A stretch of DNA of 51,991 bases from Candidatus Zhuqueibacterota bacterium (GCA_022562085.1 JADFPY010000002.1:1-51991); one strand, 5' to 3'. Counted from the first letter of the stretch, positions 7,871 to 36,999 are shown. The notes: a model not told the origin generated them from the sequence alone. A program made the numbers and translations.

Positions 7871-7886
7871 TGCTACCTCCTTTCGT

Positions 7887-16038: not shown

Positions 16039-16364
16039 AACATCGCCTCTTAGGTTAATTAATTATGGGCTTAAACCACTACCATTGCGATGGCTCTCTC
16101 AAAAAGGATGTCCCGTTCAGGAATTATTTAAATTACGTACCTCCCTAACGCGGACAAACCGCAAATCTCAAAAAACAAACTACAAATAAAACTCAAATAC
16201 CAAATTCCAATAAAACCATAACTTTCAGTGATTTTGTTTGAAAATTTGAAAATTGGATTTTGGAAATTACTTGTTATTTGTGATTTCAAATTCTGCCAAA
16301 AAATGGCAGAAAATTACTTGTCAGTTACTAAAAGGTACCCTTGAGATCGATCAAGAGGTATGTA

Positions 16365-16585
16365 ATGAGTAGATTGAAAAAGTTATCACATACGCTTTAC
16401 AAATGCAAGTTTTATATGGCATTTTGTCCGAAATATATCGTTCTCGGAAACTTCAAAGGTGATTATCACTGAATATGCGCGTCAGCTATTGTGTTGCTCG
16501 TAGTTAGTATCCCACAGCCTTGACCAGGAGGTCAATCATGGAATCCAACAATATGAGTGCTCATGTCTTCCTATTTATGCGGTAG
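16365..16585 (+). pseudogene. Decayed N-terminal remnant of an IS200/IS605-family Y1 (HUH) transposase tnpA
   Basis: Three frame-shifted pieces. MSRLKKLSHTLYKCKFYMAFCPKY (16365-16472) resembles the IS200 TnpA N-terminus (..LaHT.w.CKYHIVF.PKY..). TEYARQLLC lies at 16468-16503. IMESNNMSAHVFLFMR (to 16585) resembles ..E...aDHIHML.. Both His-containing motifs are degraded. An 8-bp-stem hairpin TTCTGCCA-AAAAA-TGGCAGAA at 16291-16311 lies upstream. The remnant is truncated where the 3' end of the next gene begins. Confidence 0.45.
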
Positions 16586-18220
16586 TCCGATCCCATATCT
16601 TCCTGGCGAGATAACGTGATGCGGATCGAGGGCCTGCTTGATTTTGTTTGCCAGCTTTTGAAATTCCGGCGTGCAGTTTAATATTTCGTCATAGTAAGCT
16701 ACGGTGGTCCGGTATTGCTGATAACCTTGCTCAAGAAGAACTGTGGCCAGCTCCTTGCGTAGAGCTTGCGCTCGTTTCGCTTCATCTGCGTTGGTTTTGT
16801 CGTAGAAGATAGCTTGCAACGTTAATGCGCAACGCGGGTTAATCATGACAAATGTACAGGCAAAATCGAATCCATGTTTGTGAAAGATCTCAGTGCACAA
16901 CTCCTTCAATTTATCTATTTCACTTCCAGTCAATGGCACGATGCAGGAAAACCAGACGAACCCCGTACCATCGCGCGCCGGGTCTAAATTCTCCGTGGGG
17001 GCAGGTGTCTGGGATTTGAAGTAAGCAATTCTCAAAACATATTCTCCCGGGATACCTTTGAAAATGGGATAAACTTGCGGAAGTCCCTCAATTTTTTCGA
17101 GGGAAGCACTGGTCACTGACCTGAGAATGGAGTTGATCATCGGGAAATCCTTATACCTTCTCCAGAAACGGGTTATTTTCCCGACAATCTTCAGCTTGGC
17201 ATCATCCAAAAGATCGAACCGGCCGTACGGCTTCAGATGCTGTTTGAGAAGCTTAAGCTGTAACCGAACTTGCTTGCGGGTTCCATAGATGCCACCTGAG
17301 AGTAACCATGGCGATATGAGGTACTTCTCCCTGACCGAGGCCATTTCTTTTGCAGAGAGGTAGGTTTGCCCATCTGCCAACCGGTCGTAGGGATAGGGCT
17401 GCATGGCGGACAGAAAAAGTACATCATTTGTGAGGTGAACATTGCTTAGAAGGATTCGATTTAAGGACAAGCGGCGCAGTGTGTCTATCACTGCCGGCAG
17501 ATATTCCTCTTTTTCCAAATCAAGCAAAAACATGACGAACTTTTCGGGCTCGGGCATTAGCCAAATCCCGGCTTTGGTTACAATACCAAAGTTGGCCTGG
17601 GCGAACAGGCCCTCAATATACGGCCCGGTGCCCCATTTGTACACATTCGCAGTTCGCGAGTTTTCGGGTCCCCCTCCCGTGCGCAAAATCTCGCCTGACG
17701 GAAGAACGACTTCCATGCCGCACAGTTGACCAAAGTGATCCCAGTAAGGTGTATAACCAACGCCACGTTCCATGGCATTGCCAACGACACTTCCTTCGGG
17801 AGTTGCATCTGTGCAGTCGGTCCAGAGTTTGATATTGTTATGATCCAGATGCTCCCGGAGTTTCTTCTGGGTAACTCCAGGCTCGATTACGGCATAGGCC
17901 AATTCCTCGTTCACCTCGACGACACGATTCATGCGATCCAGCATCAAGATCACAGCCCCGGCCTCGAGCCCCATACTTGCACCATAACTCCAGTTCTTGC
18001 CTTTGCTGAATGGCCATATTGGGAATTTGTATCGGTTGGCCAGTTTCACAATCTGTGCAACTTCTTCGGTAGTGGCCGGGAAAACTACCGCCGCCGGTAT
18101 TTTTAACCATTCGCTTGTATCTGTAGAATACTTCTTGACATCTTCCGCGTCCGTAAGAACATGGCTGGTGCCGACAATTTGTCTGATCCCTTCTAAAGCT
18201 TTCTCTTCAACTCTCGCCAT
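16571..18220 (-). CDS. FAD-binding oxidase of the PCMH/VAO family (vanillyl-alcohol oxidase / 4-alkylphenol oxidase-like)
   Basis: N-terminal FAD_binding_4-type region PAAVVFPATTEEVAQIVKLANRYKFPIWPFSKGKNWSYG. 549 aa, the size of VAO/PCMH flavoproteins. Confidence 0.8.
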   Translation of the reverse strand: MARVEEKALEGIRQIVGTSHVLTDAEDVKKYSTDTSEWLKIPAAVVFPATTEEVAQIVKLANRYKFPIWPFSKGKNWSYGASMGLEAGAVILMLDRMNRVVEVNEELAYAVIEPGVTQKKLREHLDHNNIKLWTDCTDATPEGSVVGNAMERGVGYTPYWDHFGQLCGMEVVLPSGEILRTGGGPENSRTANVYKWGTGPYIEGLFAQANFGIVTKAGIWLMPEPEKFVMFLLDLEKEEYLPAVIDTLRRLSLNRILLSNVHLTNDVLFLSAMQPYPYDRLADGQTYLSAKEMASVREKYLISPWLLSGGIYGTRKQVRLQLKLLKQHLKPYGRFDLLDDAKLKIVGKITRFWRRYKDFPMINSILRSVTSASLEKIEGLPQVYPIFKGIPGEYVLRIAYFKSQTPAPTENLDPARDGTGFVWFSCIVPLTGSEIDKLKELCTEIFHKHGFDFACTFVMINPRCALTLQAIFYDKTNADEAKRAQALRKELATVLLEQGYQQYRTTVAYYDEILNCTPEFQKLANKIKQALDPHHVISPGRYGIGLPHK

Positions 18221-18292
18221 TTAGCTTCTCCAAAGTGAATATCCGCCCTTGTCTTCGTAGATAGTTCCATGTGGCAGGCTCGCTGAATTTAA

Positions 18293-19900
18293 CTACGAGA
18301 CCTGGCCATCCGGAAACAGAGACTGCCGGAGTTCCTGGGTAGCGCTGCTGGCAGTGTTGGCGTTGAAGACCGCAAAAACATAGCGATCTGGCCTAAGAAC
18401 CACAAGATTCACCTGGAATCTATCGAACCAGGCTGCGAGCTTGCTCTCCAGGTCAGCCACGACTGCAAGGCCATCTTCAGGCCCTGGCTGTTCCGTTGCC
18501 CCGATGATCCGGACAAACCTGGTCGACAGGTTCTCCCAAAAAGCTTGCGACTCTGTAGTTATCACGCAGCGAGGATCAACCTCCAGGCCGAGAACAGCGA
18601 AGCCGTGGCCCAGCACCTCATCCAGCAGAACGCTCTCCTCATCTGTCGTGCGCACTTTTGGTTGAATGAATAGTTTGCCCCGGGCCGCACGTGATTGTTG
18701 CTGGCGGTCGCTAGCAACCAAACCACCACGAAAGCTTGCCTCTGGCCTGAATTCTCCACTTCTTACCTTGCGGCCAATGGTAGGTACAAACTTGAGAAGA
18801 CGGAAGAATAGGTTGCGAATCCAGGCAACAGTTCGGCTCTCGGTTTGTAAAATACGACCGAAATTAACTGACATTCTGGTCATTCTCTGAACGTGAGGTT
18901 TTCGTTCGATTTGGTAGGACTGCAGGATCGCGGGGTCGGCATGACCACGAAGAACGAGCGCCATCTTCCAACTCAAATTACTAACATCGCGAATCCCTGA
19001 GTTCATGCCGGTGCCACCAAACGGTGGCGTGAGGTGTGCCGCATCGCCGGCCAGGAAAACCCGCCCAGCAGTCCACTTGTCTGCGATACGGGCATGGTAG
19101 ATGTACACGGACTTGCGGATCAGCTCCACATCTCCTAAATCCACCCAGGGAGCTAACAGCGCTCTGACCGTTTCGAGCTGTTCCATTTGCTCCTGGGTTT
19201 CCCCAGTCTTGAGCATGAACTGCCAGCGATGATGGTTGAACGCCATCGGATAGGTAACAACCGGACGCTTCGGATCACAGATGAATTGGAGATTTGACGG
19301 ATACTTAGATGGATCATCAATCTTGACATCGACAACAAGCCATTGCTGGAAGGTCTTTCCAATCAACTCCGCACCTATCTGATGACGCACAATGCTACGA
19401 CCTCCATCACATCCCAGCAGGTACTTTGCTCTGACCTCGTAAACTTTATCGGTACCATGGTCTCGCACGACGACGGTAACTCCTTCGCCAGAGTCAGAAA
19501 ATGACTCTGCTTCGTTTCCCAGTCGAACTTCAACACAGGGAAATCGGTCAACGCCTTCGCGCAGCGTTTTTTCGATAAATGGCTGATAGAGGAGTATGAA
19601 CACATGGAACCCGTAGCCGAAATCGGTGCTACGTACTTCCAGGAATGGTTTGCCAACACCATCCAGAAACTGTAAAAGATTCTGGGGCAGCAGTTTGGGC
19701 ATGAGCAGATCTGACAAATGGATCGACTGCCAAATGCGCATCGATTCATCATCGCAAGTTCCTGCACGCGGCAACCGGTAAACGGCATCATCACGTTCGA
19801 GCACCAGGGTGCGGATGCCAAGTTGGCCAAACAAGTTTGCAGCCGTCGTGCCAACGGGGCCATACCCCGCGAGGATAATGTCATAGTCCGGGGTCGTCAT
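18293..19900 (-). CDS. FAD-dependent aromatic-ring monooxygenase (PheA/TfdB/MhpA-like)
   Basis: ORF 18293..19945. Preferred ATG at 19900 with GGGAGGA 8 nt upstream. GxGxxG motif DIILAGYGPVGTTAANL. DG and GD motifs GCDGGRSIVR and LAGDAAHLTPPFGGTGMNSGIRD. Confidence 0.8.
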   Translation of the reverse strand: MTTPDYDIILAGYGPVGTTAANLFGQLGIRTLVLERDDAVYRLPRAGTCDDESMRIWQSIHLSDLLMPKLLPQNLLQFLDGVGKPFLEVRSTDFGYGFHVFILLYQPFIEKTLREGVDRFPCVEVRLGNEAESFSDSGEGVTVVVRDHGTDKVYEVRAKYLLGCDGGRSIVRHQIGAELIGKTFQQWLVVDVKIDDPSKYPSNLQFICDPKRPVVTYPMAFNHHRWQFMLKTGETQEQMEQLETVRALLAPWVDLGDVELIRKSVYIYHARIADKWTAGRVFLAGDAAHLTPPFGGTGMNSGIRDVSNLSWKMALVLRGHADPAILQSYQIERKPHVQRMTRMSVNFGRILQTESRTVAWIRNLFFRLLKFVPTIGRKVRSGEFRPEASFRGGLVASDRQQQSRAARGKLFIQPKVRTTDEESVLLDEVLGHGFAVLGLEVDPRCVITTESQAFWENLSTRFVRIIGATEQPGPEDGLAVVADLESKLAAWFDRFQVNLVVLRPDRYVFAVFNANTASSATQELRQSLFPDGQVS

Positions 19901-19922
19901 ACTGAATGTCCTCCCTTCTTCA

Positions 19923-21494
19923 TTATGAATCTTTGTAACTTTCAACCACGGCTTCCGCCGTCTGCTCCGAGATAGCGGAAATGGTCATGCAGGGGTGAAA
20001 CCCCAGTGATGAGGGAATCATGGACCCATCAGCGACGTATAAGCCGGGGTAGCCATGTACTTCTCCCGCGGAGGAAACAACACCCTCTTCGGGTGAATCA
20101 GAGAGATTGCATCCGCCGAGTGGGTGCACGGTGAGAATTCGTTTAAAGATGGTCCAGGTGACCAGTGGGGCAAATGTTCCGCCATAAATATCGCTTACTT
20201 CCTGCATACTTGCAATCATCTTCTCCACCAACTCGTGGTTCTCACGAGCATAATTCCACGTAATATCGAGATTTCCCTTTTTCAACCGGATCTGACCGTT
20301 GGCATTATCCCGTCCAATCGCAAAAAGGTTGGTCATTCTGGCAGGATCACCAGCGTTGGGCATAGACGCTTTACCCGGTTTACTCAACAGTCCTTTCTTA
20401 AATGCCCAAATGAGAATGGACGCCATCTTATGCCACAGTATCGGCGACAGAAAACGCAGCCAACCGTGGTTGGGCTGGCCCATAGCAGCCAAAACTTTCA
20501 TCACCGGTTGACTGAAGCTAGGCGCGGCCATGGTGAACTGAGGCGCCTCGTCAAAATAGCGCATCACGGAAGTGACATCCGGCCCTTTCCATGGTTCGAG
20601 GTCGATCTCACTATTCTGAATGGACCCAAGAAAATCACCATTTCCTGAGAAACCGCTGCCCAGTTTTGCACTAAGCTTGGGCAGGGTTCTGAATACATCA
20701 CGACTCTGGAGTAGAATCTTGTTGGTTCCTAGAGTACCCGCTGAGAGAACCGTACGTGAGGCATCAACACTGCCCGCTTTATCGGTTCCCACGTCTTTAT
20801 AATGCACGCGATAGCCCGATTGCAAAGGCTCAATATGCATGACGTTGATGCCGGTTTGGATGCGAGCGCCCAACTGCTCGGCCTTCGCAAGATAGGTTAG
20901 ATCCAGCGAGTTTTTTGCTCCGTACTGACATCCAAATTCGCACTCCGCTACCATGCGGCAAGCCTCCCGGTCTGGCCCGCCAGGCTCTTGCCAACTCACT
21001 GCCTGGTCTGGATCGAAAACATCTCGATTTAGCTTCTTAGCTGCTTGTCGAAAGATGTCGCGTTTCGGCAATGAGACGTCTGCCGGCACCGGTGCGATGC
21101 CCAGCATATCTGCGACCTTATCGTAGTATGGATCAAGACTCGCGCGGTTAATTAAGCGCGGCCATTTGGGATCTTCAAACACCACAGCGTCCGGTCGGAT
21201 ATGGATATTGGCGTAAATCAAAGATCCACCGCCAACGCCGCTTGCAACAATGGTTCCTATGCCGGAGAAAAAGTCCAATTCATACAAGCCCCGAAAATCC
21301 GATTGTTTCGGGTAACGCCAAAACAAGCTCTTGACATCGGTGACGTCTCTGGGGAATTCGCCGGGTTTGTAGCGTTTGCCGCGCTCCAAAACCAGCACGG
21401 ATTTGCCGGCCTCCGCCAAACGTAAAGCATTTATGGAACCACCGAATCCAGAACCGATGACGACTGCATCGTACTGATGTGGAGAATTATTCAT
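19923..21494 (-). CDS. GMC-family oxidoreductase (cholesterol-oxidase-like)
   Basis: DAVVIGSGFGGSINALRLAEAGKSVLVLERG at the N-terminus. C-terminal VHPLGGC and GLYVADGSMIPSSLGFHPCMTISAISE. The ATG overlaps the upstream stop (ATGA at 21491-21494). Confidence 0.85.
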   Translation of the reverse strand: MNNSPHQYDAVVIGSGFGGSINALRLAEAGKSVLVLERGKRYKPGEFPRDVTDVKSLFWRYPKQSDFRGLYELDFFSGIGTIVASGVGGGSLIYANIHIRPDAVVFEDPKWPRLINRASLDPYYDKVADMLGIAPVPADVSLPKRDIFRQAAKKLNRDVFDPDQAVSWQEPGGPDREACRMVAECEFGCQYGAKNSLDLTYLAKAEQLGARIQTGINVMHIEPLQSGYRVHYKDVGTDKAGSVDASRTVLSAGTLGTNKILLQSRDVFRTLPKLSAKLGSGFSGNGDFLGSIQNSEIDLEPWKGPDVTSVMRYFDEAPQFTMAAPSFSQPVMKVLAAMGQPNHGWLRFLSPILWHKMASILIWAFKKGLLSKPGKASMPNAGDPARMTNLFAIGRDNANGQIRLKKGNLDITWNYARENHELVEKMIASMQEVSDIYGGTFAPLVTWTIFKRILTVHPLGGCNLSDSPEEGVVSSAGEVHGYPGLYVADGSMIPSSLGFHPCMTISAISEQTAEAVVESYKDS

Positions 21495-24400
21495 GATTTT
21501 GTTTCTTCCAGTTGATTTAAGATGTGGGGATAAACATCGCGCACGGCATTCTTGCCATAAATGCAGTCGATGTGCCCATAATCCGGAATCACGAAACGCT
21601 TGTAAAGATCTGCTCCATTCTGGTCACGCAACAGGTTGTAGGTGATTTCGGTGCTCTCGGGCAAGTAGCATTCGTTTTCCTCACCCGAAATGAAAGTAAT
21701 CGGTATCGCCATGCGCTCAAGATGGGGCAGATAACTATCCTCTCCTTGAAGATTGACCAGGTGCCCTTTACGAGACATAAGCGCGAGGTGTTCGAAGGAA
21801 GTAATATTGGCCACTCCAAACAACTCATGCAAGTTGTCATGTGTCAGGCGGTTTAACTGGTCGTGCTCATATAGCTGACCGTACAGGAAAGCGATGCGGT
21901 GGCAAACCGGATTGTTGCAGCGCTCTTCTTTTTGGATCGGATAAAATTTCAGAGCTTCGTTAAACAACTTGTCCGGCCACTTAGCGTCTTTGGCCGTATA
22001 AGCGTTGAGTGATTTTATCCCCATTTTAGCCAGGAAGCTAGGTGTATGTAGACCGGTCTTCATCCTTGATAGGAAGGGCAGCTTCATGTGGGTAGACACT
22101 TGCGAACAGACCGCCGCGCGGACCCCTTGCAGCCAGCCGCCAAGCATGGACATAGACCAGGTTGTCGATCCGTAGCAATGAACCACCATCTGTACACTTT
22201 TCGCAGCAGTGATCTCAAGAACGGCATCGACTGCCCTGGGGTAGTCGTACTTGGCTATCACGTCCCCGCTGAATTGTGCATGCGCAGCTGGGAGCTCAAT
22301 ACTGGCGCGATAATCCAGCAGCCAAACGTCATATTCATGGGCGAAGAGATACTCAACCAGATTCGTGTCGTAAGTATCCATCGAGAAAATACGACTGGAC
22401 ACACCCAATCCGTGTGAAAGTATGACCGGGCCTTTTGAGCCCCCCTGGTAACGAGTCAGACGAAGCGTTACCTGATCCTGGGTCTTGATATCGAAGACCT
22501 CGGGTGCAGAGGCACGCAACGGACGTTTTTTACGGGGGGCAGCATCTGGATTGAAATAATTCTGCCCGGCGAAGATACCACCGAAAGTGTCAAAAAGCCT
22601 CCCGGCAAAAAATGTCCCAAATTGCGCATTGTACTTCAAACACTGCGCCAAACTGCTGGTGTTGGTCACCTTAAGCGTTCGCATCTGCTTCATAAAATCC
22701 ATCGCCCTGATCTTCAGCACACCCTTGCCGAACACCGGACCTCCTTCATTTTCGCCCTCATAGATTGTGATATAGAGCGTCGTAGTATCGCTCCAAAGAT
22801 CAAAACCTGGGTCATCTCGAATCTCTTTGAACCCCTTCAGATAATAATCCTGACCCTCTTGCGAACTCAATTTCATATCATAACGCATCAGGCGAGTTTC
22901 GATCTCGTCGGGATGTTCGGTCAGGAGATTAAAAACACCCTCAGTCACCGTTAAGGCTGCTGTAGAAAGGGCAGGAGCGCTGACAGTACCTATTAGCGTT
23001 GCCTGGTGTCTCTCATCCTGAAGCATTAGTTCAAGATCATTGGAAATGACGGTGACGGTAAACTCAAAAGTCGAGCCCTCTGTCTTACCAAGTTCAGCAG
23101 CCCTTTGATAGTCTTCCTTGATTTTGGTTGAGAAATAGCCCACCATGGTCTCGGTGAACTGAATTCCCACTTTAGATGGTAGCACGGCTTTCGGTGCTCG
23201 CGATGGCAAATCGTAATTGATTCTCCAACCGTGGTCATTGGCAATTAACGCGACATTACGTTCAGCAATTGCGGAGATCGTCAAGAGAGGATTGGTCCCT
23301 AGTGACGTCGGAATAACTGAGCCATCGAGCACGTACAAGCCTCGGTGAACCTCATCACTTTCTTTTGACGCGAATACCTGACCTTTGTGATTCACCACAC
23401 CGTCTGATGACTGTTCAGCCATAATACAACCGCCCAGGGGATGAACGGTGACCAAATTATGACCTAATAGTTTTGTCCATGTCGGATTTGGCACATACGT
23501 TCCCCCCAGCGCTTCTGTCGCCTTGATAAGACGCTTCTTTGCTTTTATGAAAATCTCGTCCTTACCGATCCCCGGCCAGGTAATGCGCAATCTGTCATCT
23601 TGAAGCGTCATGACTCCTCCACAACCATCATGGCACATAACAAGATAAGTTTGTGTATTATTGACCGCGCCACGGTAGGCACTTCCCAGGAAAACACTTT
23701 CCAATTCTCGTTTTTTCTCACCGAGGAAGTCTAACAACCCTTCATCGGTATCTTCACCAATGAATTTGCTGGCAGTTGAAAACAGCAGGGGTAAAATCGC
23801 CGACATTGCTCCAGGAATCGTGCCGTCTTCAATACACATGCCTTCTTTATAATCTTCACTGCTTTTGCGCGTATCGATGATGCTGGTAATACAAGGCCCA
23901 ACGGGGTTATCAGCATCTGGAGTACGATTTCCCCAGCCGATGCCGTTTATCTTTTCATCATTATTATAAGCGAAAGCGATCATATCACCATTTCCACTAA
24001 AATGCTTGCCAAGCATATCCGACGCGGTTAACCCGTTTTGTTTTGAACGCAGTAAAATTTCCGTACTACCCAGCGTCCCGGCTGCCAGGATAACGATGTC
24101 TGCCCGGACGAACAAAGTGGAAGCATCGAATTTTTCCCGTCCCATGCCGGTTGCCTTGAAATGCACGACCCATTTGCCCGCTTGCTTCTCTAGGTAGCGA
24201 ATATTCACTTCCGTAAAAATATCAGCACCATGGTTCCTGGCGTCGGGCAGGTAGTTCATCTGCACCGTATTCTTAGCAGTGTGGTTACAACCAGAGGTAC
24301 AATCGCCACACAAAATGCAAGGAGATTGTTCCACTCCGACATGATTCAGGCCGTCCTTGTTTTCCTCGAATGTAACTGCAATGGGAGTTCGATAAAAATC

Positions 24401-24913
24401 CTCTTTCATATACTTTGCAGATTTTTCGTGCGCGGAGAGTTTTTTCAAAGACGGCAACTTGTCTGGATACGGTACGGGTTTCAACATTTCCCGGGCTCGC
24501 TTGAAACCGGCCGCCACGCCGTCGTTGAGGTCCTGCACCAGCGCTTTTGGCCACGCCGGATTTTGAAAGACCCGGGGGTCAGCCTCGATAGCAACATTCG
24601 CGTTAATCAAGGAGGTACCACCAAGGCCACAACCTACCAAGACATTTATGTCATCATTGGTATGGAAGTCGAAAAGATTCGTTTCAGAGCCAGAGTGGCC
24701 TTTTGGTGTATCGTACTGCGAGTTTGCAGCGGCTTCAGGTAGGGTACTGGGAAAATCGCCTGGAAAGAACTCTTTTCCTCGTTCCAATACACAGACCTGC
24801 TGCCCAGCCCTGGCAAGACGCGATGCGGCGATCCCGCCGCCATAGCCGGATCCGATCACCACAACTGTGTAATGATTCTTGATGTTTTCGATGGGTAGAG
24901 ATAGACGTGACAT
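21491..24913 (-). CDS. Fusion protein: GMC oxidoreductase (cholesterol-oxidase-like) + ~250-aa middle region + C-terminal alpha/beta-hydrolase-fold domain
   Basis: ORF 21491..24928 opens with TTG. Preferred ATG at 24913 with a GAGGA that overlaps the upstream stop codon. The GMC part has VVVIGSGYGGGIAASRLARAGQQVCVLERG, VHPLGGC and GLYVLDGSVIPTSLGTNPLLTISAIAE. The C-terminal part has GPVILSHGLGVSSRIF, the candidate nucleophile region VVHCYGSTTW and the His region IPDYGHIDCIYG. Confidence 0.8.
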   Translation of the reverse strand: MSRLSLPIENIKNHYTVVVIGSGYGGGIAASRLARAGQQVCVLERGKEFFPGDFPSTLPEAAANSQYDTPKGHSGSETNLFDFHTNDDINVLVGCGLGGTSLINANVAIEADPRVFQNPAWPKALVQDLNDGVAAGFKRAREMLKPVPYPDKLPSLKKLSAHEKSAKYMKEDFYRTPIAVTFEENKDGLNHVGVEQSPCILCGDCTSGCNHTAKNTVQMNYLPDARNHGADIFTEVNIRYLEKQAGKWVVHFKATGMGREKFDASTLFVRADIVILAAGTLGSTEILLRSKQNGLTASDMLGKHFSGNGDMIAFAYNNDEKINGIGWGNRTPDADNPVGPCITSIIDTRKSSEDYKEGMCIEDGTIPGAMSAILPLLFSTASKFIGEDTDEGLLDFLGEKKRELESVFLGSAYRGAVNNTQTYLVMCHDGCGGVMTLQDDRLRITWPGIGKDEIFIKAKKRLIKATEALGGTYVPNPTWTKLLGHNLVTVHPLGGCIMAEQSSDGVVNHKGQVFASKESDEVHRGLYVLDGSVIPTSLGTNPLLTISAIAERNVALIANDHGWRINYDLPSRAPKAVLPSKVGIQFTETMVGYFSTKIKEDYQRAAELGKTEGSTFEFTVTVISNDLELMLQDERHQATLIGTVSAPALSTAALTVTEGVFNLLTEHPDEIETRLMRYDMKLSSQEGQDYYLKGFKEIRDDPGFDLWSDTTTLYITIYEGENEGGPVFGKGVLKIRAMDFMKQMRTLKVTNTSSLAQCLKYNAQFGTFFAGRLFDTFGGIFAGQNYFNPDAAPRKKRPLRASAPEVFDIKTQDQVTLRLTRYQGGSKGPVILSHGLGVSSRIFSMDTYDTNLVEYLFAHEYDVWLLDYRASIELPAAHAQFSGDVIAKYDYPRAVDAVLEITAAKSVQMVVHCYGSTTWSMSMLGGWLQGVRAAVCSQVSTHMKLPFLSRMKTGLHTPSFLAKMGIKSLNAYTAKDAKWPDKLFNEALKFYPIQKEERCNNPVCHRIAFLYGQLYEHDQLNRLTHDNLHELFGVANITSFEHLALMSRKGHLVNLQGEDSYLPHLERMAIPITFISGEENECYLPESTEITYNLLRDQNGADLYKRFVIPDYGHIDCIYGKNAVRDVYPHILNQLEETKS

Positions 24914-24924
24914 GATATTGATCC

Positions 24925-27549: not shown

Positions 27550-27552
27550 GAT

Positions 27553-28662
27553 CTAAGAGTCGTTTATTGCGCTTCTACTGAAACTGCCTTGCAGCTTCCT
27601 TAGCCAGCGCGAGAACCGTCCACGCTCTGGCAACCCGGTGCCGTTTATTTCTGCAACTAACTTCTTAAATACCGGTGAATATAGCTGAGGGCGATCGCCG
27701 GTCATAACAACATAATTCCGTCTGACGAGATCATCAAGGACGTATACTTTGGCTTTGTCAATTCGCTTTGACTTCATTAGGAGTTTGAAGATTTCCTTCT
27801 GGTCGTCGTTAAACGATTGCCATAAGGATTTGAAATAGCTTTCAACTTCAGCGCAAAACCTGGCCTCCCACACCCTCAGGTCAGCCGGCTCAAGGCTGGC
27901 ACGCGCCACCTTCATATCAAAAAGGATACTGCAAGCCGCTTGCAGCATAAAGGGAAAATGGCCAGCCATATTGAGGATCAGCTTGCGTTCGGAATTCACG
28001 GATAGACCGGCTCTATGAAATGGTTCCTCTATGAGCTGTATCGCTTCATCTTGTTCAAAGGGCTTCAGGGTGACATTTGTAAAAATGTTAAAGAATGGCG
28101 ATTCCTCTATATCTTTGGAAACACAGAGTTTTTGTAAATCCATAAAAGATGACGTGACAAAAGCCAGATTGAAGTTATTCGCCAATGAACGCAAGAATGA
28201 AAAAAACTCGAGCGGAAAAGTTTCGTTTTGAGTAATCAGATGAAAATCATCGAAGAACAGGATGATCTTCTTGTCTTTTTGATTCAGGTTTTCGATGATG
28301 CTCTTGAACAAATCATAACTGGGTTCGGCTTCTCTGATCTCAGTTATCACTTTGGTTTTTTGAGAAATACCGTTGCATAGAGAGATGTAGAAATTTTTAA
28401 AGGAGAGGTTCCTTTCCAACCTGATGGGCATATAAAAGTAGATATAGTCATCAGGGTTCTTAAGCCACGTTCGTCTCGTCTCTTCGAGCGCCAGATACCA
28501 CAAGAGGGAAGATTTCCCAATCTTTGGCTCACCAACGACTGAGATAGACTGCGGGCGGTCCGCGCCAATACGTGAGTAAATCTTCGTAAGCACATTGGTC
28601 CGTCCAAAGAAAAGATCGCGGTTTGTAACAGGGCTTTTGTAATCGTAAAGGTTTTGCATCAT
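27553..28662 (-). CDS. Stand-alone Arch_ATPase/STAND-like P-loop ATPase (module copy 3)
   Basis: LFFGRTNVLTKIYSRIGADRPQSISVVGEPKIGKSSLLWYL (Walker A nt 28510-28533). Walker B IILFFDDFH. SPFFNIFTN, AGHFPFMLQ, and the winged-helix-like LDDLVRRNYVVM. The ATG overlaps the upstream stop by 1 nt (TAATG). Confidence 0.8.
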   Translation of the reverse strand: MMQNLYDYKSPVTNRDLFFGRTNVLTKIYSRIGADRPQSISVVGEPKIGKSSLLWYLALEETRRTWLKNPDDYIYFYMPIRLERNLSFKNFYISLCNGISQKTKVITEIREAEPSYDLFKSIIENLNQKDKKIILFFDDFHLITQNETFPLEFFSFLRSLANNFNLAFVTSSFMDLQKLCVSKDIEESPFFNIFTNVTLKPFEQDEAIQLIEEPFHRAGLSVNSERKLILNMAGHFPFMLQAACSILFDMKVARASLEPADLRVWEARFCAEVESYFKSLWQSFNDDQKEIFKLLMKSKRIDKAKVYVLDDLVRRNYVVMTGDRPQLYSPVFKKLVAEINGTGLPERGRFSRWLRKLQGSFSRSAINDS

Positions 28663-29972
28663 TAGAAACCGAGCTGAAAACCCACCGTTGCAATAAAGTC
28701 TGATCTCAGCCCACCAGCATTGAGAGGAACTATTATATTGCCAATCAAGATAAACTCTGGCTTGGGGTTAAACTTTAGACCCAGTGAAGCATTCAGGTTA
28801 TGGTCATGAGAAAAACTGGGAATATTCGTCAACATCACTTCCCGCACGGCATTCCCGGCCGGTCGCTCTAAGGTGACGGACTTTCCGAATCGCAGCTCTT
28901 CAATTTCATCGCCGATTTCGAATTCGCCCAGGAAATCTACAGATAATGTCAGCCATGTTGCCAACTTTTGATCATAACCGACAAAAAGTTCGATTTCATC
29001 GGGATCGAGATCGTTGTTTCGGCGGTCGTAGGTCAAATTCAGGTGGGGTCCAAAATTCCCAATAATGGCCGAGGCGATCAGCATCGCCCGAAAACTTGAG
29101 TGGCCAGTGCCCAGGAAGTTTTCTTCATCGCCCGTTGCGGCACGATACTCAAGCAAGCCCGCGAGACCAAGCGTCTTCCCGCGAAGAAAGCTATACTTGG
29201 CACGAAGAGCGATATCACCGATGCCCGCATCATCATCATTTAGAGAAGTTGGCCTCAGCGATAGGATGGGGTCCGACGGGGTACCGCCGGGAAAACTATG
29301 GTTTGCCGTATCGTTGCTAACAAAGGTGAAGCTATTTATTCGAGCGATGGGATCAGCGTTTACACTGACATTGACGAACGGCACAGCAATGCTGATATCA
29401 AAATGATTCGTGATGCCCGCCGTCAGGTTGAACGAAACAATGGTCGCGTTCAAATCCAAATTCATGAAAAGATCAATGGTATCGAATTCATTGTCAGAGT
29501 CGCCAAGGCCGGGCGCTCCCACATCCTGGTGGGTAAAGGTAAAGCGAATGTCTTCAGTCTTGAGACCCCGGAGTTTAGAGAAGTTGAGAACACTTAGGTT
29601 GAGCCCCAGACTGAACCGGCCCTTGCCCAAGGTTTGCGCTCGTTCAGAAAAGATTGGGCCCATGCTCGTAGTCGTACTCACGGGCTGACCGGTACTAAAA
29701 TCGAAGGTCAAACCAGCTTCAGTAGAACCGAGTGGAAAGGAGGCGATATTTGCAGCAATGAAGCTGGCAAATGAGTTTATGGTCGCCTCGCTCAACGCCA
29801 CGTTGTCCGCCCTAAAATGGGTCCCGTGTTCCCCGGGGCCGGCGAGTTCGATCTCCAGAACTTCACCGAAGATATTACCTATTTTATCCCGTAAACTTTG
29901 GCCAACAACGGTCTGTGACGGAGCCAGCGCTACAATAAGCCACACCGCCACAACCAATCGATTTGAGTGCAT
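28662..29972 (-). CDS. Putative outer-membrane beta-barrel protein (MetA-pathway/phenol-degradation-like transporter family is a guess)
   Basis: Signal peptide MHSNRLVVAVWLIVALAPSQTVVGQ with AGGAGG upstream. Alternating hydrophobic beta-strand pattern throughout. GIGDIALRAKY motif. C-terminal ...TVGFQLGF ends in Phe, as in OMP sorting signals. Confidence 0.6.
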   Translation of the reverse strand: MHSNRLVVAVWLIVALAPSQTVVGQSLRDKIGNIFGEVLEIELAGPGEHGTHFRADNVALSEATINSFASFIAANIASFPLGSTEAGLTFDFSTGQPVSTTTSMGPIFSERAQTLGKGRFSLGLNLSVLNFSKLRGLKTEDIRFTFTHQDVGAPGLGDSDNEFDTIDLFMNLDLNATIVSFNLTAGITNHFDISIAVPFVNVSVNADPIARINSFTFVSNDTANHSFPGGTPSDPILSLRPTSLNDDDAGIGDIALRAKYSFLRGKTLGLAGLLEYRAATGDEENFLGTGHSSFRAMLIASAIIGNFGPHLNLTYDRRNNDLDPDEIELFVGYDQKLATWLTLSVDFLGEFEIGDEIEELRFGKSVTLERPAGNAVREVMLTNIPSFSHDHNLNASLGLKFNPKPEFILIGNIIVPLNAGGLRSDFIATVGFQLGF

Positions 29973-29995
29973 TTTTCTCCTCCTTTTGTTTTCGG

Positions 29996-32446
29996 TTACC
30001 CACCTCGGCTGATGTTAGAGATAAGCCAAGTAGTGCTTGCTTCAGCGAGTTGAATCTGCCATGTAAAGCGATTGTCAGAATTGACGAAGCCACTATACTT
30101 CAGGCGAACATCTACAGAAGTCGTAACGCCATTTTCGCGAAAGGTAAATTTCTCGATCGACAATTGGGCTTCAATATTATCCACGGTTTTGAACACCTGA
30201 GACCATTGTGTTTCCATCTTTTTAGTGAAGTTCACATAGAGACTTTTTAACGACTGAATATCCTTATTTTCCAGAGCTTGTCCATATTGGGCAATTACAG
30301 ATCGGATATTTTTTATTTGGCCTTTGCGCACGACGATACTGGCTTCATAAAATTGTTGAGCTCGTCGATAGCTCTGGACAGCCGCGGTAGCGTCCCCACT
30401 TTGCAATTGCGACTCGCCGTTCCTTTCCGCCTTTGCGGCCTGCTGATAGTCATCCAAAAATACATACTGTTCGTCAAGCTGGCCCTTTATTTTCTGGAGA
30501 CTCTTCCGAAGTGCCTCGGCTTGTGTGGCAAAGTTGGCGGAAGCCGTACGTGCTTCTGCGGCGGCAGATAAGTATAGTTGCTGGGCGTGCTGAAAATCGG
30601 TACTCGCCGTCTGAAACCGCTTTTTAGAAAAGGAGCGTCTCGCTGCTCTCTCTTTTTGCCTGGCGGCGTTAAAAGACTTTTCCGCAAGCGCGGCCGCGGA
30701 AACCTTTTCTGCTGCCGTTTTGGCACTGCTCATCCTATTCCGCCAGCTTATTGCCTGGCTTTGAGCAGCGGCCGTTCGACTCCTGGCATCCTCTCCCGCT
30801 TTAACACGGGCCTGCTCGATTGCTTCCTCTTTTTCAGCGCGATCGACCGATTCTTCGAATTTTTCTTTGGCGCGCTGGAACAAATCTATTGCACTGGTAT
30901 AATCAAGCTGATCAAAAACTGTAAGCCCTTGTTGTTTCAACTGCAAACCGGAGTCAAAGGATGCTTCGGCATACTTGGAAGCATTTTTCTGAACGGCTTG
31001 CTCCTCGGCGATCTCCATGGCTTCTCGCGCTTTCCCTGCCGACTCCAGATCGTTCAATTCAGCCGGAGGTTCTGCGGTCTTGATTTCGGACGGTGGTATG
31101 ATAGTTTGAAACCGCTCCTTTAGCTCCGGCAGAAACCGCGTTATCAGGATACCGAACAAAGTGGCAACCACGACGACTACCGGCCATTTTCTCCGTCTCC
31201 TTTTCGTCGGGCCACGACTTGTCTGGCTTGGAATACCTTGGTCGGTACTGACTTCCACTGGCGCCCTTTTCTCTTCGGTTAGGTCAGACCCGACATCTTT
31301 GATAACGCTCCAGATCGAGTGATCACGTTTTATCCACCCTCTAAAGAGATCCATCTTGAAACTGTAGCCGTCGTCAGTCTTATTGACAAACTGACTGTGG
31401 AACAGACTTTCCAGAGTCGTGTTGATGGCTTGTACACTTGCATTAATACCGAGCTCGCGTTTTTTGCATCGTTTTTCGATCTGCTTGGCTTCTACGGAGG
31501 TATTCTCATCTTTCAGCAATTCCGCCATAAGAGAAAGAACGAGTTTCTTATTATTGGACAGGCTGTTCCAGAAGTAGATCATCTGAGGGAGAGGGTTTTC
31601 CATGATTTCATCAGCGATCACTTTCAAATCTTGCTTGTCGACGTGATTTTTTTCCTTGTCATTCAAATGATCAACAATGTTCTGACAAACCACCTGGGTA
31701 TAAAATGGCTGTCCGGCAGTGAGCCGGCGGATGGCGTCAAGGGCATCATCTTCATAGCTCACATAGTCCGGAACTGGCTCCGTAATCAATCGCAGCGTAT
31801 CTCGCTCAGAGAGAAAACTGACATTACGATAGAGGGACTTGGGAAGCATGATCGACCAGTATTTGCTTTCCCGGTCATCTAACCGCGTCGAGCCGGTCAA
31901 AATATAAGAGACTTTGCGTTCGCTCTCCAGGATGCCGGCCAAGAAAGGGACCAAATTTGCGCTTAGACTGCCTTCATCGATTTTCGATTCGATCAACTCG
32001 TACTCATCAATCAGAAAGAGTATCTTCTTATCCGGATTGAGCGTTTGCACATCATCGAGTAGCTTGTCGAATACTTTGTAGGGATTTTCCTTTTGGGACA
32101 GGAAATCATAGTCGTTAAGATCGATCTTGTCATCCTGCAGACATTTGACGGTTTCCTTGGCGACTTTTTCGAAAAACTCCGCGTCATTTTTTAGACCGGC
32201 CATGGTTTGCATGTCCACCAGAATGGGAAGAAAGCTCGTCCCCAATTCTCCATTTAAGATTTGAAACAAAATAGAAGTTTTTCCGCTTCGCCGTTCCCCA
32301 CAGAATACGATGACAAAACTCTGATCCCCCGCCTCGAGTTTGCGTTTTACAAAATCAAAGTCGTCAGCTCGGCCATAGAACATCTCTCTGGATTTAATAG
32401 GGTTGCCGACAATGTACGGATTGGGAATGGGCTTGAATTCAGACAT
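29996..32446 (-). CDS. Arch_ATPase/STAND-like ATPase (module copy 4) + single TM helix + three helical Ala/Gln-rich repeats + C-terminal NTF2/SnoaL-like domain
   Basis: ORF 29996..32578; preferred ATG at 32446 (MSEFKPIPNPYIVGNPI...). FYGRADDF, GERRSGKT (nt 32276-32299), Walker B ILFLIDEYE, AGQPFYTQ. TM helix RRRRKWPVVVVVATLFGILITRFL (about nt 31130-31190). Repeats have the form A..A...F..A...(Y/F)..A...F..A. The C-terminus IAQYGQALENKDIQSLKSLY...WLISNI is NTF2-like. Confidence 0.75.
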   Translation of the reverse strand: MSEFKPIPNPYIVGNPIKSREMFYGRADDFDFVKRKLEAGDQSFVIVFCGERRSGKTSILFQILNGELGTSFLPILVDMQTMAGLKNDAEFFEKVAKETVKCLQDDKIDLNDYDFLSQKENPYKVFDKLLDDVQTLNPDKKILFLIDEYELIESKIDEGSLSANLVPFLAGILESERKVSYILTGSTRLDDRESKYWSIMLPKSLYRNVSFLSERDTLRLITEPVPDYVSYEDDALDAIRRLTAGQPFYTQVVCQNIVDHLNDKEKNHVDKQDLKVIADEIMENPLPQMIYFWNSLSNNKKLVLSLMAELLKDENTSVEAKQIEKRCKKRELGINASVQAINTTLESLFHSQFVNKTDDGYSFKMDLFRGWIKRDHSIWSVIKDVGSDLTEEKRAPVEVSTDQGIPSQTSRGPTKRRRRKWPVVVVVATLFGILITRFLPELKERFQTIIPPSEIKTAEPPAELNDLESAGKAREAMEIAEEQAVQKNASKYAEASFDSGLQLKQQGLTVFDQLDYTSAIDLFQRAKEKFEESVDRAEKEEAIEQARVKAGEDARSRTAAAQSQAISWRNRMSSAKTAAEKVSAAALAEKSFNAARQKERAARRSFSKKRFQTASTDFQHAQQLYLSAAAEARTASANFATQAEALRKSLQKIKGQLDEQYVFLDDYQQAAKAERNGESQLQSGDATAAVQSYRRAQQFYEASIVVRKGQIKNIRSVIAQYGQALENKDIQSLKSLYVNFTKKMETQWSQVFKTVDNIEAQLSIEKFTFRENGVTTSVDVRLKYSGFVNSDNRFTWQIQLAEASTTWLISNISRGG

Positions 32447-32747
32447 AGAGTGTTCTTGTAGAAGGTTCACAAAGAAGCTTAAGCCGCGAGCCCAATAATG
32501 CCCGAGCTGCTGTCTTCGCTTCGGAATGAGTACTTTGTTTAGACACCAAAGACGGGTTAGGTCCTGTCGATTAAACAAACATAATTTTTCAACTTGCCAT
32601 CTCGATCACCGATGGCAAGCGGAGACCAGAAAAATATCTCAATTTAAAAGTACGAAAAGTTCAACATCATGTCAATAAAAATATAGGTTTTCTAAGGCAT
32701 GGGGACTAAGTAAGTAGCACAACATTTCTTACAGAGAATCTGGGAAA

Positions 32748-33475
32748 CTAATGAGCTTGACAGCTTATTACCTTTGCCCCCTGTTTAATACTAAAACAGA
32801 ATCCTAGCCACAACCCATGGTGAGACAGGCTGATATCAATTTCAGTCTGTTTATTATCCAATAATAGAAAAGGCGGTTGCGGCCTACGTGCTTTAGAAGG
32901 ACGAATAATTTGCAGCCGCGATGGCGCAACTTTTAGTTCTTTTGCTACTAATTTCTTGCAATGAAAGCGTACCAGAGCCGATTCCGCATGATGGATTGAA
33001 ACGAGTTCTTCTTTTGTAAAATGTTCCGACCAACTGTTCGGATTTTGCCAATCCTTTAACTCAGAATGCGTTACCTGATGCACCTTTTCGCTCAATAAAT
33101 AGTTTGGCAGCTCACTGGTATTTGCATGCGCGCCAACGGCATGAATGTAATTTATATTGGTAGCTAATTCTATTTGAAATTGCCGCGCATCATAAACAAC
33201 TTCAAATTTAGACTTTGATTTCGAAATTTTTTGTATGAAAAGACCGGAGGCCTGGTTATTTTTGAAATGATTTTGTAGGCAGTTTCTTTGGCTGCCCAGA
33301 ACATCCAGAGGGTTAAATCAGGATTTTCTGAGAGCGAAATAGCGGATTTTTCTTCACGGCTGAAAACTCTTTCAACAAAGCGGGCACTATAAAATTTACC
33401 TGTGATGCCCGCTTCGTTTAAATCAACAATATCATTGCCTAACAGTAGCAAAATAAGCCTGTTCCATGAGTCCAA
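32748..33475 (-). pseudogene. 4'-phosphopantetheinyl transferase superfamily gene interrupted by a frameshift in an A6 run
   Basis: The upstream frame (33170..33475) carries LGNDIVDL and WAAKETAYKI. The downstream frame is open from 33317 to 32748. It carries KFEVVYDARQF...NYIHAVGAH, FTKEEL, and IDISLSHHGLW. The two frames can be joined by 1 nt at the run T6/A6 at 33227-33232. Confidence 0.6.
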
Positions 33476-34181
33476 GCTTGCTTATTATTTGGATGGCGAC
33501 ATCCCTTGTAGCGCGTAAACCAGAGTACCTGCTCCGGGGTCTTATGAGTTCCATATCGACATAGAAACGTGCGCCTCGAGGCGGAATGCTGCTGTATTCT
33601 TCTTGATTATGGCCACGTAAATACACACACAAGACATTGCAATCTGTAAACTTATTTACTAATCTACCAACACCGTAAGTGAGACTACCCAAATCAATTC
33701 TACCGGTTCTACTTCTACTGCCTTCGGGAAAGACAGTTATTGTATGGCCTTTTTTGAGAAGGTAGATTACTTTATCGAGAGATTTTTTTACGGCGCTTCT
33801 GCTACCACCTCGATCAATTGGAACACAACTACCGAGATAGCATAAAATCCGTAAAATAAAATTTTGATGGATGTTAGCCCGCTCTGGTAAATTCCATGAG
33901 AAAATTTTAAAAGAGCGCATATAGGAAAATATTGAAGCCAGACTCCAGTTCAAGATAACCGAATCTATTTTTGTAAGGTGATTTGAACACACAATTATTG
34001 GACCTTCCACGCTTCGCTTAAGTTGTTTATAATGTCTACGAATTTCACGCAATTGTTGAACTTTATATCTGCAAACGAAACGCATGAAAGCAATGTAAAA
34101 CGTACCCCAAAACGGAAAGGTGATCCAGCCAACAAGGTACTGAATTTTCAAAGCAAACTTTTCTTTGAACTTCAAGTCCAT
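33432..34181 (-). CDS. Lysophospholipid (1-acyl-sn-glycerol-3-phosphate-type) acyltransferase, PlsC/LPLAT family
   Basis: HX4D motif CSNHLTKIDS. Motif III VFPEGSRSRTG. N-terminal hydrophobic anchor. Confidence 0.8.
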   Translation of the reverse strand: MDLKFKEKFALKIQYLVGWITFPFWGTFYIAFMRFVCRYKVQQLREIRRHYKQLKRSVEGPIIVCSNHLTKIDSVILNWSLASIFSYMRSFKIFSWNLPERANIHQNFILRILCYLGSCVPIDRGGSRSAVKKSLDKVIYLLKKGHTITVFPEGSRSRTGRIDLGSLTYGVGRLVNKFTDCNVLCVYLRGHNQEEYSSIPPRGARFYVDMELIRPRSRYSGLRATRDVAIQIISKLGLMEQAYFATVRQ

Positions 34182-34197
34182 AACACAAACTCACTAC

Positions 34198-34443: not shown

Positions 34444-34494
34444 TTTTAAAATCTCCTTAAGGATGTTTAAATATCTTTTTGTTTTTTTTATTGT

Positions 34495-36227: not shown

Positions 36228-36324
36228 GACTATTTAATTCATCATAGAAATTGAATTTCTTAATTGAAAACTTTGAAAGATACAAATTCTAATAAAAATA
36301 TCAAATGATTTATTAAAATAAACG

Positions 36325-36918: not shown

Positions 36919-36999
36919 TTTGAAGAAATGCTTTTGTTAAAAAATAGTAGTCCTCAATGCTGGTTTCAAGATACTGGATTTTTGTTGAAACCTCAAACA

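Follow-up and report, generated by a model that had tools for sequence, protein, structure and literature searches.

The stretch of DNA analysed here (51,991 nt from Candidatus Zhuqueibacterota bacterium, GCA_022562085.1 JADFPY010000002.1:1-51991, hereafter the window) carries a block of eight co-directional minus-strand open reading frames (ORFs), designated g1 to g8 in transcription order, in which g1-g4 encode ATPase-type, kinase-cyclase and outer-membrane proteins and g5-g8 encode flavoenzymes. Comparison of this block with related loci led us to conclude that it probably consists of two independent units that have come to lie head to tail in this lineage, namely module A (g1-g4), a STAND-type signalling system that we infer to span the cell envelope, and module B (g5-g8), a group of flavoenzymes unrelated to module A.

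Gene order of the block and distribution of its two halves

The ORFs of the block are listed below with the non-coding stretch upstream of them, which was delimited by sequence inspection and by blastn of the sister-strain loci L005 and L008 against the window.

32447-32747, minus strand: non-coding stretch 5' of g1
29996-32446, minus strand: g1, membrane-anchored ATPase with a predicted periplasmic NTF2-like domain; ATG start, the ORF reaching upstream to a TTG at 32578
28662-29972, minus strand: g2, predicted outer-membrane beta-barrel of the Phenol_MetA_deg / COG4313 family
27553-28662, minus strand: g3, stand-alone nSTAND2 NTPase with winged helix
24925-27549, minus strand: g4, Ser/Thr kinase, class III nucleotide cyclase and C-terminal nSTAND2 NTPase
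21491-24913, minus strand: g5, GMC flavoenzyme fused to an alpha/beta-hydrolase; ATG start
19923-21494, minus strand: g6, GMC oxidoreductase, cholesterol-oxidase-like
18293-19900, minus strand: g7, group-A FAD aromatic hydroxylase, MhpA-like; ATG start
16571-18220, minus strand: g8, homologue of VAO/PCMH-type 4-alkylphenol oxidases or dehydrogenases

The ORF check recovered all eight minus-strand ORFs at the coordinates proposed in an initial annotation of the window, the Pfam matches were in agreement with the domain content assigned there, and reading of the sequence confirmed all seven junctions. Specifically, g1 and g2 are separated by 23 nt containing AAGGAGGAG, g2 and g3 overlap in a TAATG, a gap of 3 nt lies between g3 and g4, g5 begins 11 nt after g4 with a TGAGGA overlapping the g4 stop codon, g5 and g6 share an ATGA overlap (4 nt), and g7 and g8 are preceded by 22 nt (including GGGAGGA) and 72 nt, respectively. 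Non-coding DNA flanks the block on either side, with about 300 nt before g1 and 530 nt after g8. Since the genes are co-directional and almost gapless, read-through co-transcription of g1-g8 is likely, and the g4/g5 junction, being only 11 nt long, leaves no room for a terminator; the co-transcription claimed in the initial annotation was thus upheld as a likely read-through predicted from the spacing. Consensus scans of the window identified 23 promoter-like sites (22.8 expected) and 27 terminator-like sites (20.5 ± 4.6 expected), both at chance level, and are hence uninformative on internal promoters of the block, while tRNA and Rfam scans of the window found no elements.

A metagenome scan with the g4-family alignment provided 80 further loci, and all loci were then searched by tblastn with g1-g8. 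For the tallies given below, a flank of at least 4 kb upstream was required for scoring a g1-like gene, and at least 3 kb downstream for scoring g5-g8. About 19 clusters share the architecture of g4, at 48-90% identity. The ordered cassette g1-g2-g3-g4 was found to recur at 49-61% identity in L006, L007, L010, L012 and L016, and L011 and L014 carry it as g1-g2-g4; in all of these cassettes g4 is the final gene, and flavoenzyme genes are absent from every one of them. In L006 and L007 (49-54% identity), the cassette encodes a 764-869-aa ATPase_2/AAA_14 protein, a 439-aa Phenol_MetA_deg barrel, an nSTAND2 protein of about 360 aa and a kinase-cyclase-nSTAND2 protein, and downstream of the g4 orthologue lie convergent genes of amino-acid metabolism in L006, and a gap and then a MarR gene in L007. 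Since g1-g2-g3-g4 is a conserved cassette, the proposal of a single sensing unit made up of barrel, ATPase modules and kinase/cyclase was upheld. As a separate observation, a gene for a caspase (Peptidase_C14) + Lcl_C protein lies directly 5' of the g1 orthologue in L006 (3261-4781), an arrangement not seen in the other cassettes.

Homologues of g5-g8 were found beside a g4-family gene only in L001, L005 and L013, which are 95-97% identical to the window at the nucleotide level. Among the 40 g4-family loci with sufficient downstream flank, g5-g8 follow g4 in two, both from strains 96% identical at the nucleotide level, and are lacking in 38. We also inspected six neighbourhoods of g5 homologues (59-72% identity). 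None of the six g5-homologue operons includes a STAND gene, the NACHT gene in the L002 neighbourhood lying on the opposite strand, and no g7-type or g8-type gene was found near the g5 homologue in any of the six. In L004, the g5-g6 pair is present with an identical 4-nt overlap and without STAND genes. Elsewhere, g5-g8 are not a conserved operon; only the pairing of g5 with g6 and that of g5 with a gene for a 605-aa protein, described below, recur.

In L005, the alignment skips positions 19320-20122 of the window (about 800 bp), by which g6 loses its last 65 codons and g7 its first 194, and g1-g4 are intact despite this deletion. Because the A-B linkage occurs only among such strains and L005 carries the deletion, the linkage appears to be limited to one shallow lineage and to be already decaying in one of its members. 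Synteny with the sister strains L005 and L008 stops at window position 32594 (blastn), so that the shared block begins about 150 nt 5' of the g1 ATG; in L008 (95% identical), a toxin-antitoxin-like pair occupies the position 5' of g1 at which the window has a lipid-synthesis cluster.

The initial annotation had further proposed that the flavoenzymes make or destroy the molecule that the ATPase modules sense. The comparison of ATPase and GMC/VAO gene co-occurrence revealed no conserved neighbourhood outside the 95-97%-identical strains, and the proposal was not borne out by the tallies from either side. Since the ATPase-flavoenzyme linkage, on whose conservation the idea had been staked beforehand, is not conserved, the sensor-enzyme coupling is unsupported.

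Components of the g1-g4 cassette and the wider family

In Pfam, g1 matched AAA_14 / ATPase_2 only, and the nSTAND2 model was not matched. The full AlphaFold2 model of g1, built from an alignment of 53 homologues, had a mean predicted local distance difference test score (pLDDT) of 85.7. In this model, residues 1-385 are predicted to form a cytoplasmic Cdc6/Orc1-like AAA+/STAND-like ATPase with a winged helix, and a Foldseek search with the full model returned archaeal Cdc6/Orc1 as the top matches, with Avs3 lower in the list. Residues 391-462 are disordered except for a hydrophobic transmembrane (TM) helix (423-438) with KRRRRK on its N-terminal side, residues 465-726 form long helices that we read as a periplasmic stalk, and residues 730-814 form a C-terminal alpha+beta domain with an NTF2-like fold. 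Arginine/lysine-rich flanks of TM helices are placed in the cytoplasm by the positive-inside rule; the ATPase of g1 is thus predicted to be cytoplasmic, and the stalk and the NTF2-like domain periplasmic.

As the Foldseek result of the full model was dominated by the ATPase, the C-terminal domain was modelled separately by AlphaFold2 (pLDDT 93.5, predicted TM-score 0.83). Foldseek of this model gave 32 PDB matches at E <= 1e-3, all of them NTF2-like, including 3rob (TM-score 0.71), a ketosteroid-isomerase-like protein, a bile-acid dehydratase and the NTF2 domain of RsgI9, which is the extracytoplasmic sensor domain of this anti-sigma factor. Sequence profiles on the same domain were empty in Pfam and gave only DUF4440 in the PDB profile search (E 0.13, not significant). 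The label of a TM / helical-repeat / NTF2-like protein given to g1 in the initial annotation was in good agreement with these models (TM-score about 0.7). The Walker A GERRSGKT and the Walker B DE are invariant across the 53 homologues, and the g1 ATPase is distantly homologous to the modules of g3 and g4 over about 310 aa, with an N-terminal NPY...FxGR motif in common.

The g2 protein matched Pfam PF13557 (Phenol_MetA_deg) at 34.1 bits (cut-off 22), with positions 24-149 of the 242-position model covered. It has a signal-like segment at the N-terminus and ends in ...GFQLGF, and a PDB sequence search with g2 gave no match. Its hidden Markov model (HMM) match, its signal-like N-terminus and its aromatic last residue together mark g2 as a predicted outer-membrane channel of the COG4313 type. 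The barrel is present in all nine kinase-cyclase-nSTAND2 loci with flank, at 432-439 aa and with a terminal F in each. COG4313 outer-membrane channels are implicated in taking up hydrophobic molecules (PMC4493636), and the COG4313-related FapF is reported to be a secretion channel for amyloid subunits (PMC5557850).

Both g3 and g4 matched Pfam nSTAND2 (PF20702, cut-off 24), g3 at 123.7 bits over positions 1-273 of the 279-position model and g4 at 166.7 bits, the latter also matching Pkinase and Guanylate_cyc. The two STAND modules are 36% identical. The g3 protein consists of an nSTAND2 NTPase and a winged helix without an effector or sensor domain, and we propose that it is an adaptor; its family keeps the Walker A GxxxxGK[ST] and a DDF motif. 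In 17 orthologues of g4, the motifs HRDIKPEN, DFG, FSD, KTxGD, N426, R430, GxxGKS and DE, together with the kinase motifs VAxK and SPE, are invariant or nearly so, and the C-terminus carries a conserved KKKKFLFWNL tail. Considering this conservation of the catalytic residues, the kinase and the cyclase of g4 are both predicted to be active, and the lysine of KTxGD presumably points to ATP as the cyclase substrate, as we take from what is known of class III cyclases. The ATPases of g1, g3 and g4 share one fold and one set of motifs, with Walker A and B intact in all three families. An assignment of g4 as a TOMM kinase/cyclase protein was rejected, since its TIGR03903 score (166.8 bits, confined to the kinase-cyclase part at residues 33-459) was far under the cut-off of 705.75.

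In 29 of the 30 loci with enough flank, the effector-nSTAND2 gene has a g1-like gene upstream of it in the same orientation (kinase-nSTAND2, 18/18; kinase-cyclase-nSTAND2, 5/5; cyclase-nSTAND2, 3/4; unclassified, 3/3); in three additional cyclase loci, the g1-like gene lies downstream instead. Searched against 1.84 billion cluster representatives, the nSTAND2 module of g4 matched 5180 at E <= 1e-3 and 449 at E <= 1e-30. In its close relatives, nSTAND2 is located at one or the other terminus, and the fusion partners are kinases, cyclases, caspases, a TIR domain and a sigma-54 activator with a helix-turn-helix (HTH). Individual entries include P0390 / L091 (sigma-54 activator and HTH_8), P0471 (TIR) and P0403 and P0420 (kinase and caspase), and the sigma-54 activator fusion gene of P0390 / L091 is convergent with a neighbouring 369-aa ATPase_2 gene.

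The g1 family comprises at least 905 matches, about 80 clusters being alike over the whole length. In more distant homologues, nothing but the ATPase is retained, and the TM helix is followed by PEGA, CarboxypepD_reg, FGE-sulfatase or Reg_prop/Y_Y_Y domains. Among paralogous g1-like receptors from similar samples, the ATPase parts are 62-96% identical and the extracytoplasmic parts 28-57% identical, and this much lower identity outside the ATPase points to diversification or shuffling of the sensor domain. The loci concerned are L039, L041, L042, L044, L045, L047, L049 and L063; L041 and L044, for instance, are 96% identical in the ATPase and 34% outside it.

Between the receptor and effector genes, exported proteins are encoded that differ from subfamily to subfamily, namely the g2 barrel in nine loci, a protein of about 300 aa in nine cyclase loci, a related one in nine kinase loci, and a ThuA-like protein in seven. 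The barrel and both families of about 300 aa end in aromatic-x-F, a C-terminus typical of outer-membrane proteins. By hhalign, the small exported proteins found in kinase-only loci are related to those of the cyclase-only subfamily (84.5%). Homology of either to g2 was considered and rejected, as no relation was detected.

The flavoenzymes and the surrounding genes

The enzyme families assigned to g5-g8 in the initial annotation were corroborated by Pfam, NCBIfam and PDB matches. The g5 protein has GMC N and C domains and an Abhydrolase match in Pfam, with a lipase-like alpha/beta-hydrolase located in an extra region of about 580 aa. Its family (about 1135 aa) is widespread and about 60% conserved across phyla, with source names including Ignavibacteria, Nitrospira, Bryobacteraceae, cyanobacteria and Saprospiraceae. 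A search of genome contigs with g5 gave as its sole match a 5.4-kb contig of Caldithrix sp. isolate N075bin58 (99% amino-acid and 97.4% nucleotide identity), by which the window is placed in a Caldithrix (Calditrichota) metagenome-assembled genome. The g6 protein likewise has GMC N and C domains. A cholesterol-oxidase model was the best match for both, but as the scores against ChoxAB (NF058674; g5, 161.8 bits; g6, 216.5 bits) did not reach the cut-off of 850, g5 and g6 are assigned by sequence to the GMC superfamily only.

The g7 protein matched Pfam FAD_binding_3 at 239 bits and the NCBIfam subfamily PRK06183 at 454 bits (cut-off 390). The g8 protein matched FAD_binding_4 in Pfam and, in the PDB, 8s7r (9.3e-90), PCMH (1wve/1dii, about 6e-87) and eugenol and vanillyl-alcohol oxidases (1e-67 to 1e-71); its full-length similarity identifies it as a putative VAO/PCMH 4-alkylphenol oxidoreductase, either an oxidase or a dehydrogenase. 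Taken together, g5-g8 resemble a set of enzymes for the oxidation of hydrophobic alcohols and phenols. With respect to characterized enzymes, g8 resembles p-cresol methylhydroxylase and vanillyl-alcohol and eugenol oxidases, and g5 and g6 resemble GMC cholesterol oxidases. Unlike the cholesterol oxidases, g5 has the additional region with the lipase-like hydrolase, and unlike in the PCMH-type complex, no gene for a cytochrome subunit was seen with g8.

Downstream of g8, the following genes lie on the same strand.

14221-16038, minus strand: gene for a 605-aa protein downstream of g8, with a sub-threshold Metallophos match only
9622-13986, minus strand: AcrB-type RND permease with C-terminal nSTAND2 (Pfam ACR_tran, 585 bits; nSTAND2, 156.8 bits)

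The 605-aa protein received no assignment from Pfam, NCBIfam or the PDB. A homologue (39% identity) is encoded directly 3' of the Nitrospira g5 orthologue (L089, 11474-13159), and the gene is retained in the sister strain L005. The 605-aa gene probably belongs with module B, and its product may work together with the GMC-hydrolase fusion g5. The RND-nSTAND2 gene lies 2.6 kb downstream of g8, and its nSTAND2 part shares 64% identity with that of g4 and has the same conserved KKKKFLF tail. Such a fusion is unusual and suggests an NTPase-gated pump. Near the 80 related cassettes, no RND homologues were found, and no 605-aa homologues except the one beside g5 in Nitrospira.

An insertion sequence (IS) with a DDE_Tnp_1 transposase (8035-9351, plus strand) separates the RND-nSTAND2 gene from a 123-aa SnoaL-like (NTF2-fold) ORF (7526-7897) and a gene for an outer-membrane efflux protein (5700-7241). 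Since no gene for a membrane-fusion protein was seen, the efflux operon may be disrupted. Just downstream of g8 is a 63-nt intergenic repeat (16270-16332) with the hairpin TTCTGCCA-TTTTTT-GGCAGAA, a single copy in the window, which has a counterpart of 87% identity 5' of g1 in the sister strain (L008, 1543-1600).

Upstream of the block, a lipid-type cluster (ACP/KAS/2xFabA/KASIII/reductase/acyltransferase) occupies 33432-38993 and 32748-33475, both on the minus strand. Its GC content at third codon positions (GC3) is 0.36-0.46, versus 0.52-0.56 for g1-g8, and it is not at this position in the 95%-identical strain. Two short ORFs at the synteny break resemble a split 4'-phosphopantetheinyl transferase, one of them alone matching ACPS. 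Composition gives no sign that modules A and B arose separately, as GC3 is uniform over g1-g8 and only the upstream lipid cluster differs. Likewise unsupported is the idea that the lipid cluster and g5-g8 are one cluster split by g1-g4, since the lipid cluster is not there in L008 and g5 homologues are not beside FAS-like genes. Further upstream, a gene at 40007-41932 (plus strand), preceded by a 169-aa ORF without a family match, encodes a STAND-like ATPase (ATPase_2, AAA_22, weak nSTAND1) with a C-terminal Ser/Thr kinase, which brings the number of STAND-type NTPases in the 52-kb window to five. Between genes for an ABC-transporter ATPase and a large M1-peptidase/Golvesin_C protein lies a gene with a DUF559 / Vsr-like endonuclease fold (43812-44180, plus strand).

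Relation to known systems, alternative readings and a proposed mechanism

The cassette g1-g4 is a conserved, uncharacterised variant of nSTAND2-type systems that abuts an unrelated flavoenzyme cluster. Kaur, Iyer, Burroughs & Aravind (eLife 2021, PMC8195603) predicted that an nSTAND2 two-gene operon is a mobile counter-invader system, and the core of the present cassette (the g2-g3-g4 neighbourhood) appears there in one line of a supplementary table, never being discussed in the text. As in their operon, adjacent genes (here g1, g3 and g4) encode related STAND NTPases with a winged helix, for which a hetero-oligomer is predicted, and full-model matches to Pfam nSTAND2 were obtained for g3, g4 and the RND fusion. 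The g3 family aligned with the published nSTAND2 alignment at 80.6% probability (hhalign, E 1.3e-5, 261 columns), and an HMM from eight published rows scored g3 at 10 bits, which is not significant. The two-gene system differs from the cassette in several respects. It has one eroded partner, with VTPP/VSPP instead of the P-loop in the published alignment, whereas three or four NTPase proteins with all Walker motifs intact are found here; its effectors are GT4 or HEPN on an inactive STAND, whereas here Pkinase and Guanylate_cyc are carried on an active-looking NTPase; and the present cassette adds a membrane-anchored partner with an extracytoplasmic sensor and an outer-membrane protein. The main text of a 2026 Nature survey of defence-associated STANDs does not mention the cassette.

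DGR-diversified STAND/ATPase "antigen sensors" with periplasmic CLec domains have also been proposed (Doré et al., PNAS 2024, PMC10907252; DGR, diversity-generating retroelement), and thus a periplasm-facing sensor on an NTPase is not new as an idea. Like those proteins, the cassette couples an NTPase to a sensor that may face the periplasm, and some distant g1 homologues carry FGE-sulfatase/CLec domains; unlike for those proteins, the window contains no DGR, reverse transcriptase or CLec domain, and the g1 sensor is a predicted NTF2-like domain on a helical stalk. A kinase and/or cyclase on the same polypeptide as a STAND-type NTPase is likewise found in the TOMM kinase/cyclase fusion TIGR03903 and in mycobacterial cyclase-ATPase-HTH proteins. 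The NTPase of g4, however, is nSTAND2 rather than AAA_16 with TPR, and g4 lacks the C-terminal repeat sensor of such regulators, sensing apparently being left to a separate membrane protein. FecA-FecR-FecI cell-surface signalling offers an analogy of working, in which a barrel is followed by a single-pass inner-membrane periplasmic sensor and a cytoplasmic output. It differs from the cassette in that no TonB-dependent transducer, anti-sigma or extracytoplasmic function (ECF) sigma factor is present here, the predicted transducer being AAA+/STAND and the outputs kinase/cyclase, and there is no homology between the two.

Several observations weigh against the juxtaposition of two independent units. 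Many of the metagenomic loci behind the tallies are short and some may represent redundant populations, the L005 deletion rests on a metagenome assembly and may be an assembly artefact, and GC3 is uniform over g1-g8 (0.52-0.56). Moreover, by the 11-nt g4/g5 junction, g5-g8 are very probably expressed together with g1-g4 in this lineage, and the two modules fit each other thematically, with a channel family for hydrophobic molecules and an NTF2-like pocket fold in A, and alkylphenol/sterol-type oxidases in B. All eight genes might then form one functional operon, in which the flavoenzymes make or degrade a hydrophobic, phenolic or sterol-like molecule that passes the barrel, is sensed by the ATPases and elicits the kinase/cyclase output. 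Such a reading would account for the gapless or overlapping junctions, the A+B order kept in at least three strain-level relatives, and the coherence of a COG4313 channel, a fold typical of hydrophobic-ligand pockets, and PCMH/VAO and cholesterol-oxidase-type enzymes. It is, however, difficult to reconcile with the lack of the linkage in 38 of 40 loci and in all six g5 neighbourhoods, with the terminal position of g4 in cassettes elsewhere, with the disruption of g6 and g7 in a 96%-identical strain retaining g1-g4, and with the conserved partners of g5 being g6 and the 605-aa gene rather than STAND proteins, and we consider it quite unlikely. Since g5 starts 11 nt after g4, g5-g8 are probably transcribed with the cassette, and a recently acquired functional tie between A and B may exist on this account, at a similarly low probability.

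Two other readings concern module A itself. It may be an anti-invader nSTAND2 system in which g1 acts as a diversifying sensor, located in the envelope, for molecules of phages or competitors, the kinase and cyclase serve as effectors by shutting the cell down or alarming it, and the flavoenzymes are bystanders. PADLOC-DB v2 identified no known defence system in the block, the check for such systems suggested with the initial annotation having thus been run with a negative result: g1, g2, g3, g6, g7 and g8 had no match, g4 matched generic kinase models only (PD-T4-6 and mad6, residues 1-270), and g5-g8 gave nothing beyond one marginal Rossmann match, which lends no support to the earlier idea of H2O2-generating oxidases as defence effectors. 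The matches of the g4 kinase domain to the PD-T4-6 and MADS kinase models, which could be cited for defence, amount to generic Pkinase similarity, and all NCBIfam defence models scored far below their cut-offs. Defence would be consistent with the counter-invader prediction for nSTAND2 two-gene operons, whose source data include the g2-g3-g4 neighbourhood (PMC8195603), although the three NTPases here are all intact, unlike the described system with its one eroded partner. Relatives of the NTPase module include fusions with TIR and caspase domains, and others in which the partner is a sigma-54 activator with HTH or an RND pump; the outputs of the latter are regulatory rather than suicidal. A regulatory role would likewise suit the kinase and cyclase outputs of the cassette and the lack of PADLOC matches for g1-g3. 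For defence, paralogous receptors have changed much faster in their extracytoplasmic parts than in the ATPase, FGE-sulfatase/CLec-type domains, which serve elsewhere as antigen sensors, some of them periplasmic (PMC10907252), are present on some g1 homologues, and the upstream context is variable, including the toxin-antitoxin-like pair in the sister strain. On balance, we regard a defence role as unlikely, if somewhat less so than the single operon. Far more improbable is that g2 is an export channel like FapF, with the cassette controlling secretion of a product. The COG4313 relationship to FapF, reported as a secretion channel (PMC5557850), and the position of g2 between ATPase genes would suit this, but the cassette has no conserved secreted-substrate gene, its outputs are a kinase and a cyclase, and other subfamilies have unrelated small exported proteins in place of g2.

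We thus favour module A as a trans-envelope STAND-type signalling system that is independent of the flavoenzymes. The composition, order, conservation and predicted topology of the cassette g1-g4 are established by the comparisons above; the g1-g3-g4 hetero-oligomer and the barrel-to-receptor relay are suggested by gene order and paralogy, a further point to be counted on the opposite side. STAND NTPases signal by oligomerising in a nucleotide-dependent manner, and the active form of class III cyclases is a dimer. In the mechanism that we propose, a signal would reach the periplasm through the g2 barrel, or be presented by it, and would be received by the NTF2-like domain of g1 on its helical stalk. 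Reception would switch the nucleotide state or the oligomerisation of the g1 ATPase, which would then seed a hetero-oligomer by recruiting its NTPase paralogues in g3 and g4. The induced proximity could activate the g4 kinase by trans-autophosphorylation, as well as the cyclase, the domains of which work as dimers, with protein phosphorylation and cyclic AMP as the outputs. The RND-nSTAND2 fusion (9622-13986) may be an additional client of the same g1 receptor.

The block also illustrates that near-zero intergenic spacing, even with a ribosome-binding site over a stop codon, is alone no proof of a functional operon. In its broadest form, which we put forward only tentatively, the interpretation of g1-g4 is that of a widespread, undescribed class of trans-envelope receptors, having a membrane-anchored Cdc6/Orc1-like ATPase (g1) with a rapidly diversifying extracytoplasmic domain, a dedicated outer-membrane partner, an NLR-like hetero-oligomer and interchangeable nSTAND2 modules with outputs as different as a kinase, a cyclase, a sigma-54 activator and an RND pump, so that one receptor might serve several nearby clients, in this case g3, g4 and the RND-nSTAND2 fusion. 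STAND/NLR-type NTPases are understood chiefly as cytoplasmic sensors that oligomerise on ligand binding; if the interpretation is true, the NLR/signalosome principle would extend to trans-envelope sensing in bacteria, and the RND-pump fusion hints that the same switch could gate efflux. In Calditrichota, KSB1 and allied phyla of sediments, moreover, unannotated "AAA ATPase" and "protein kinase" genes numbering several thousand would then gain a function.

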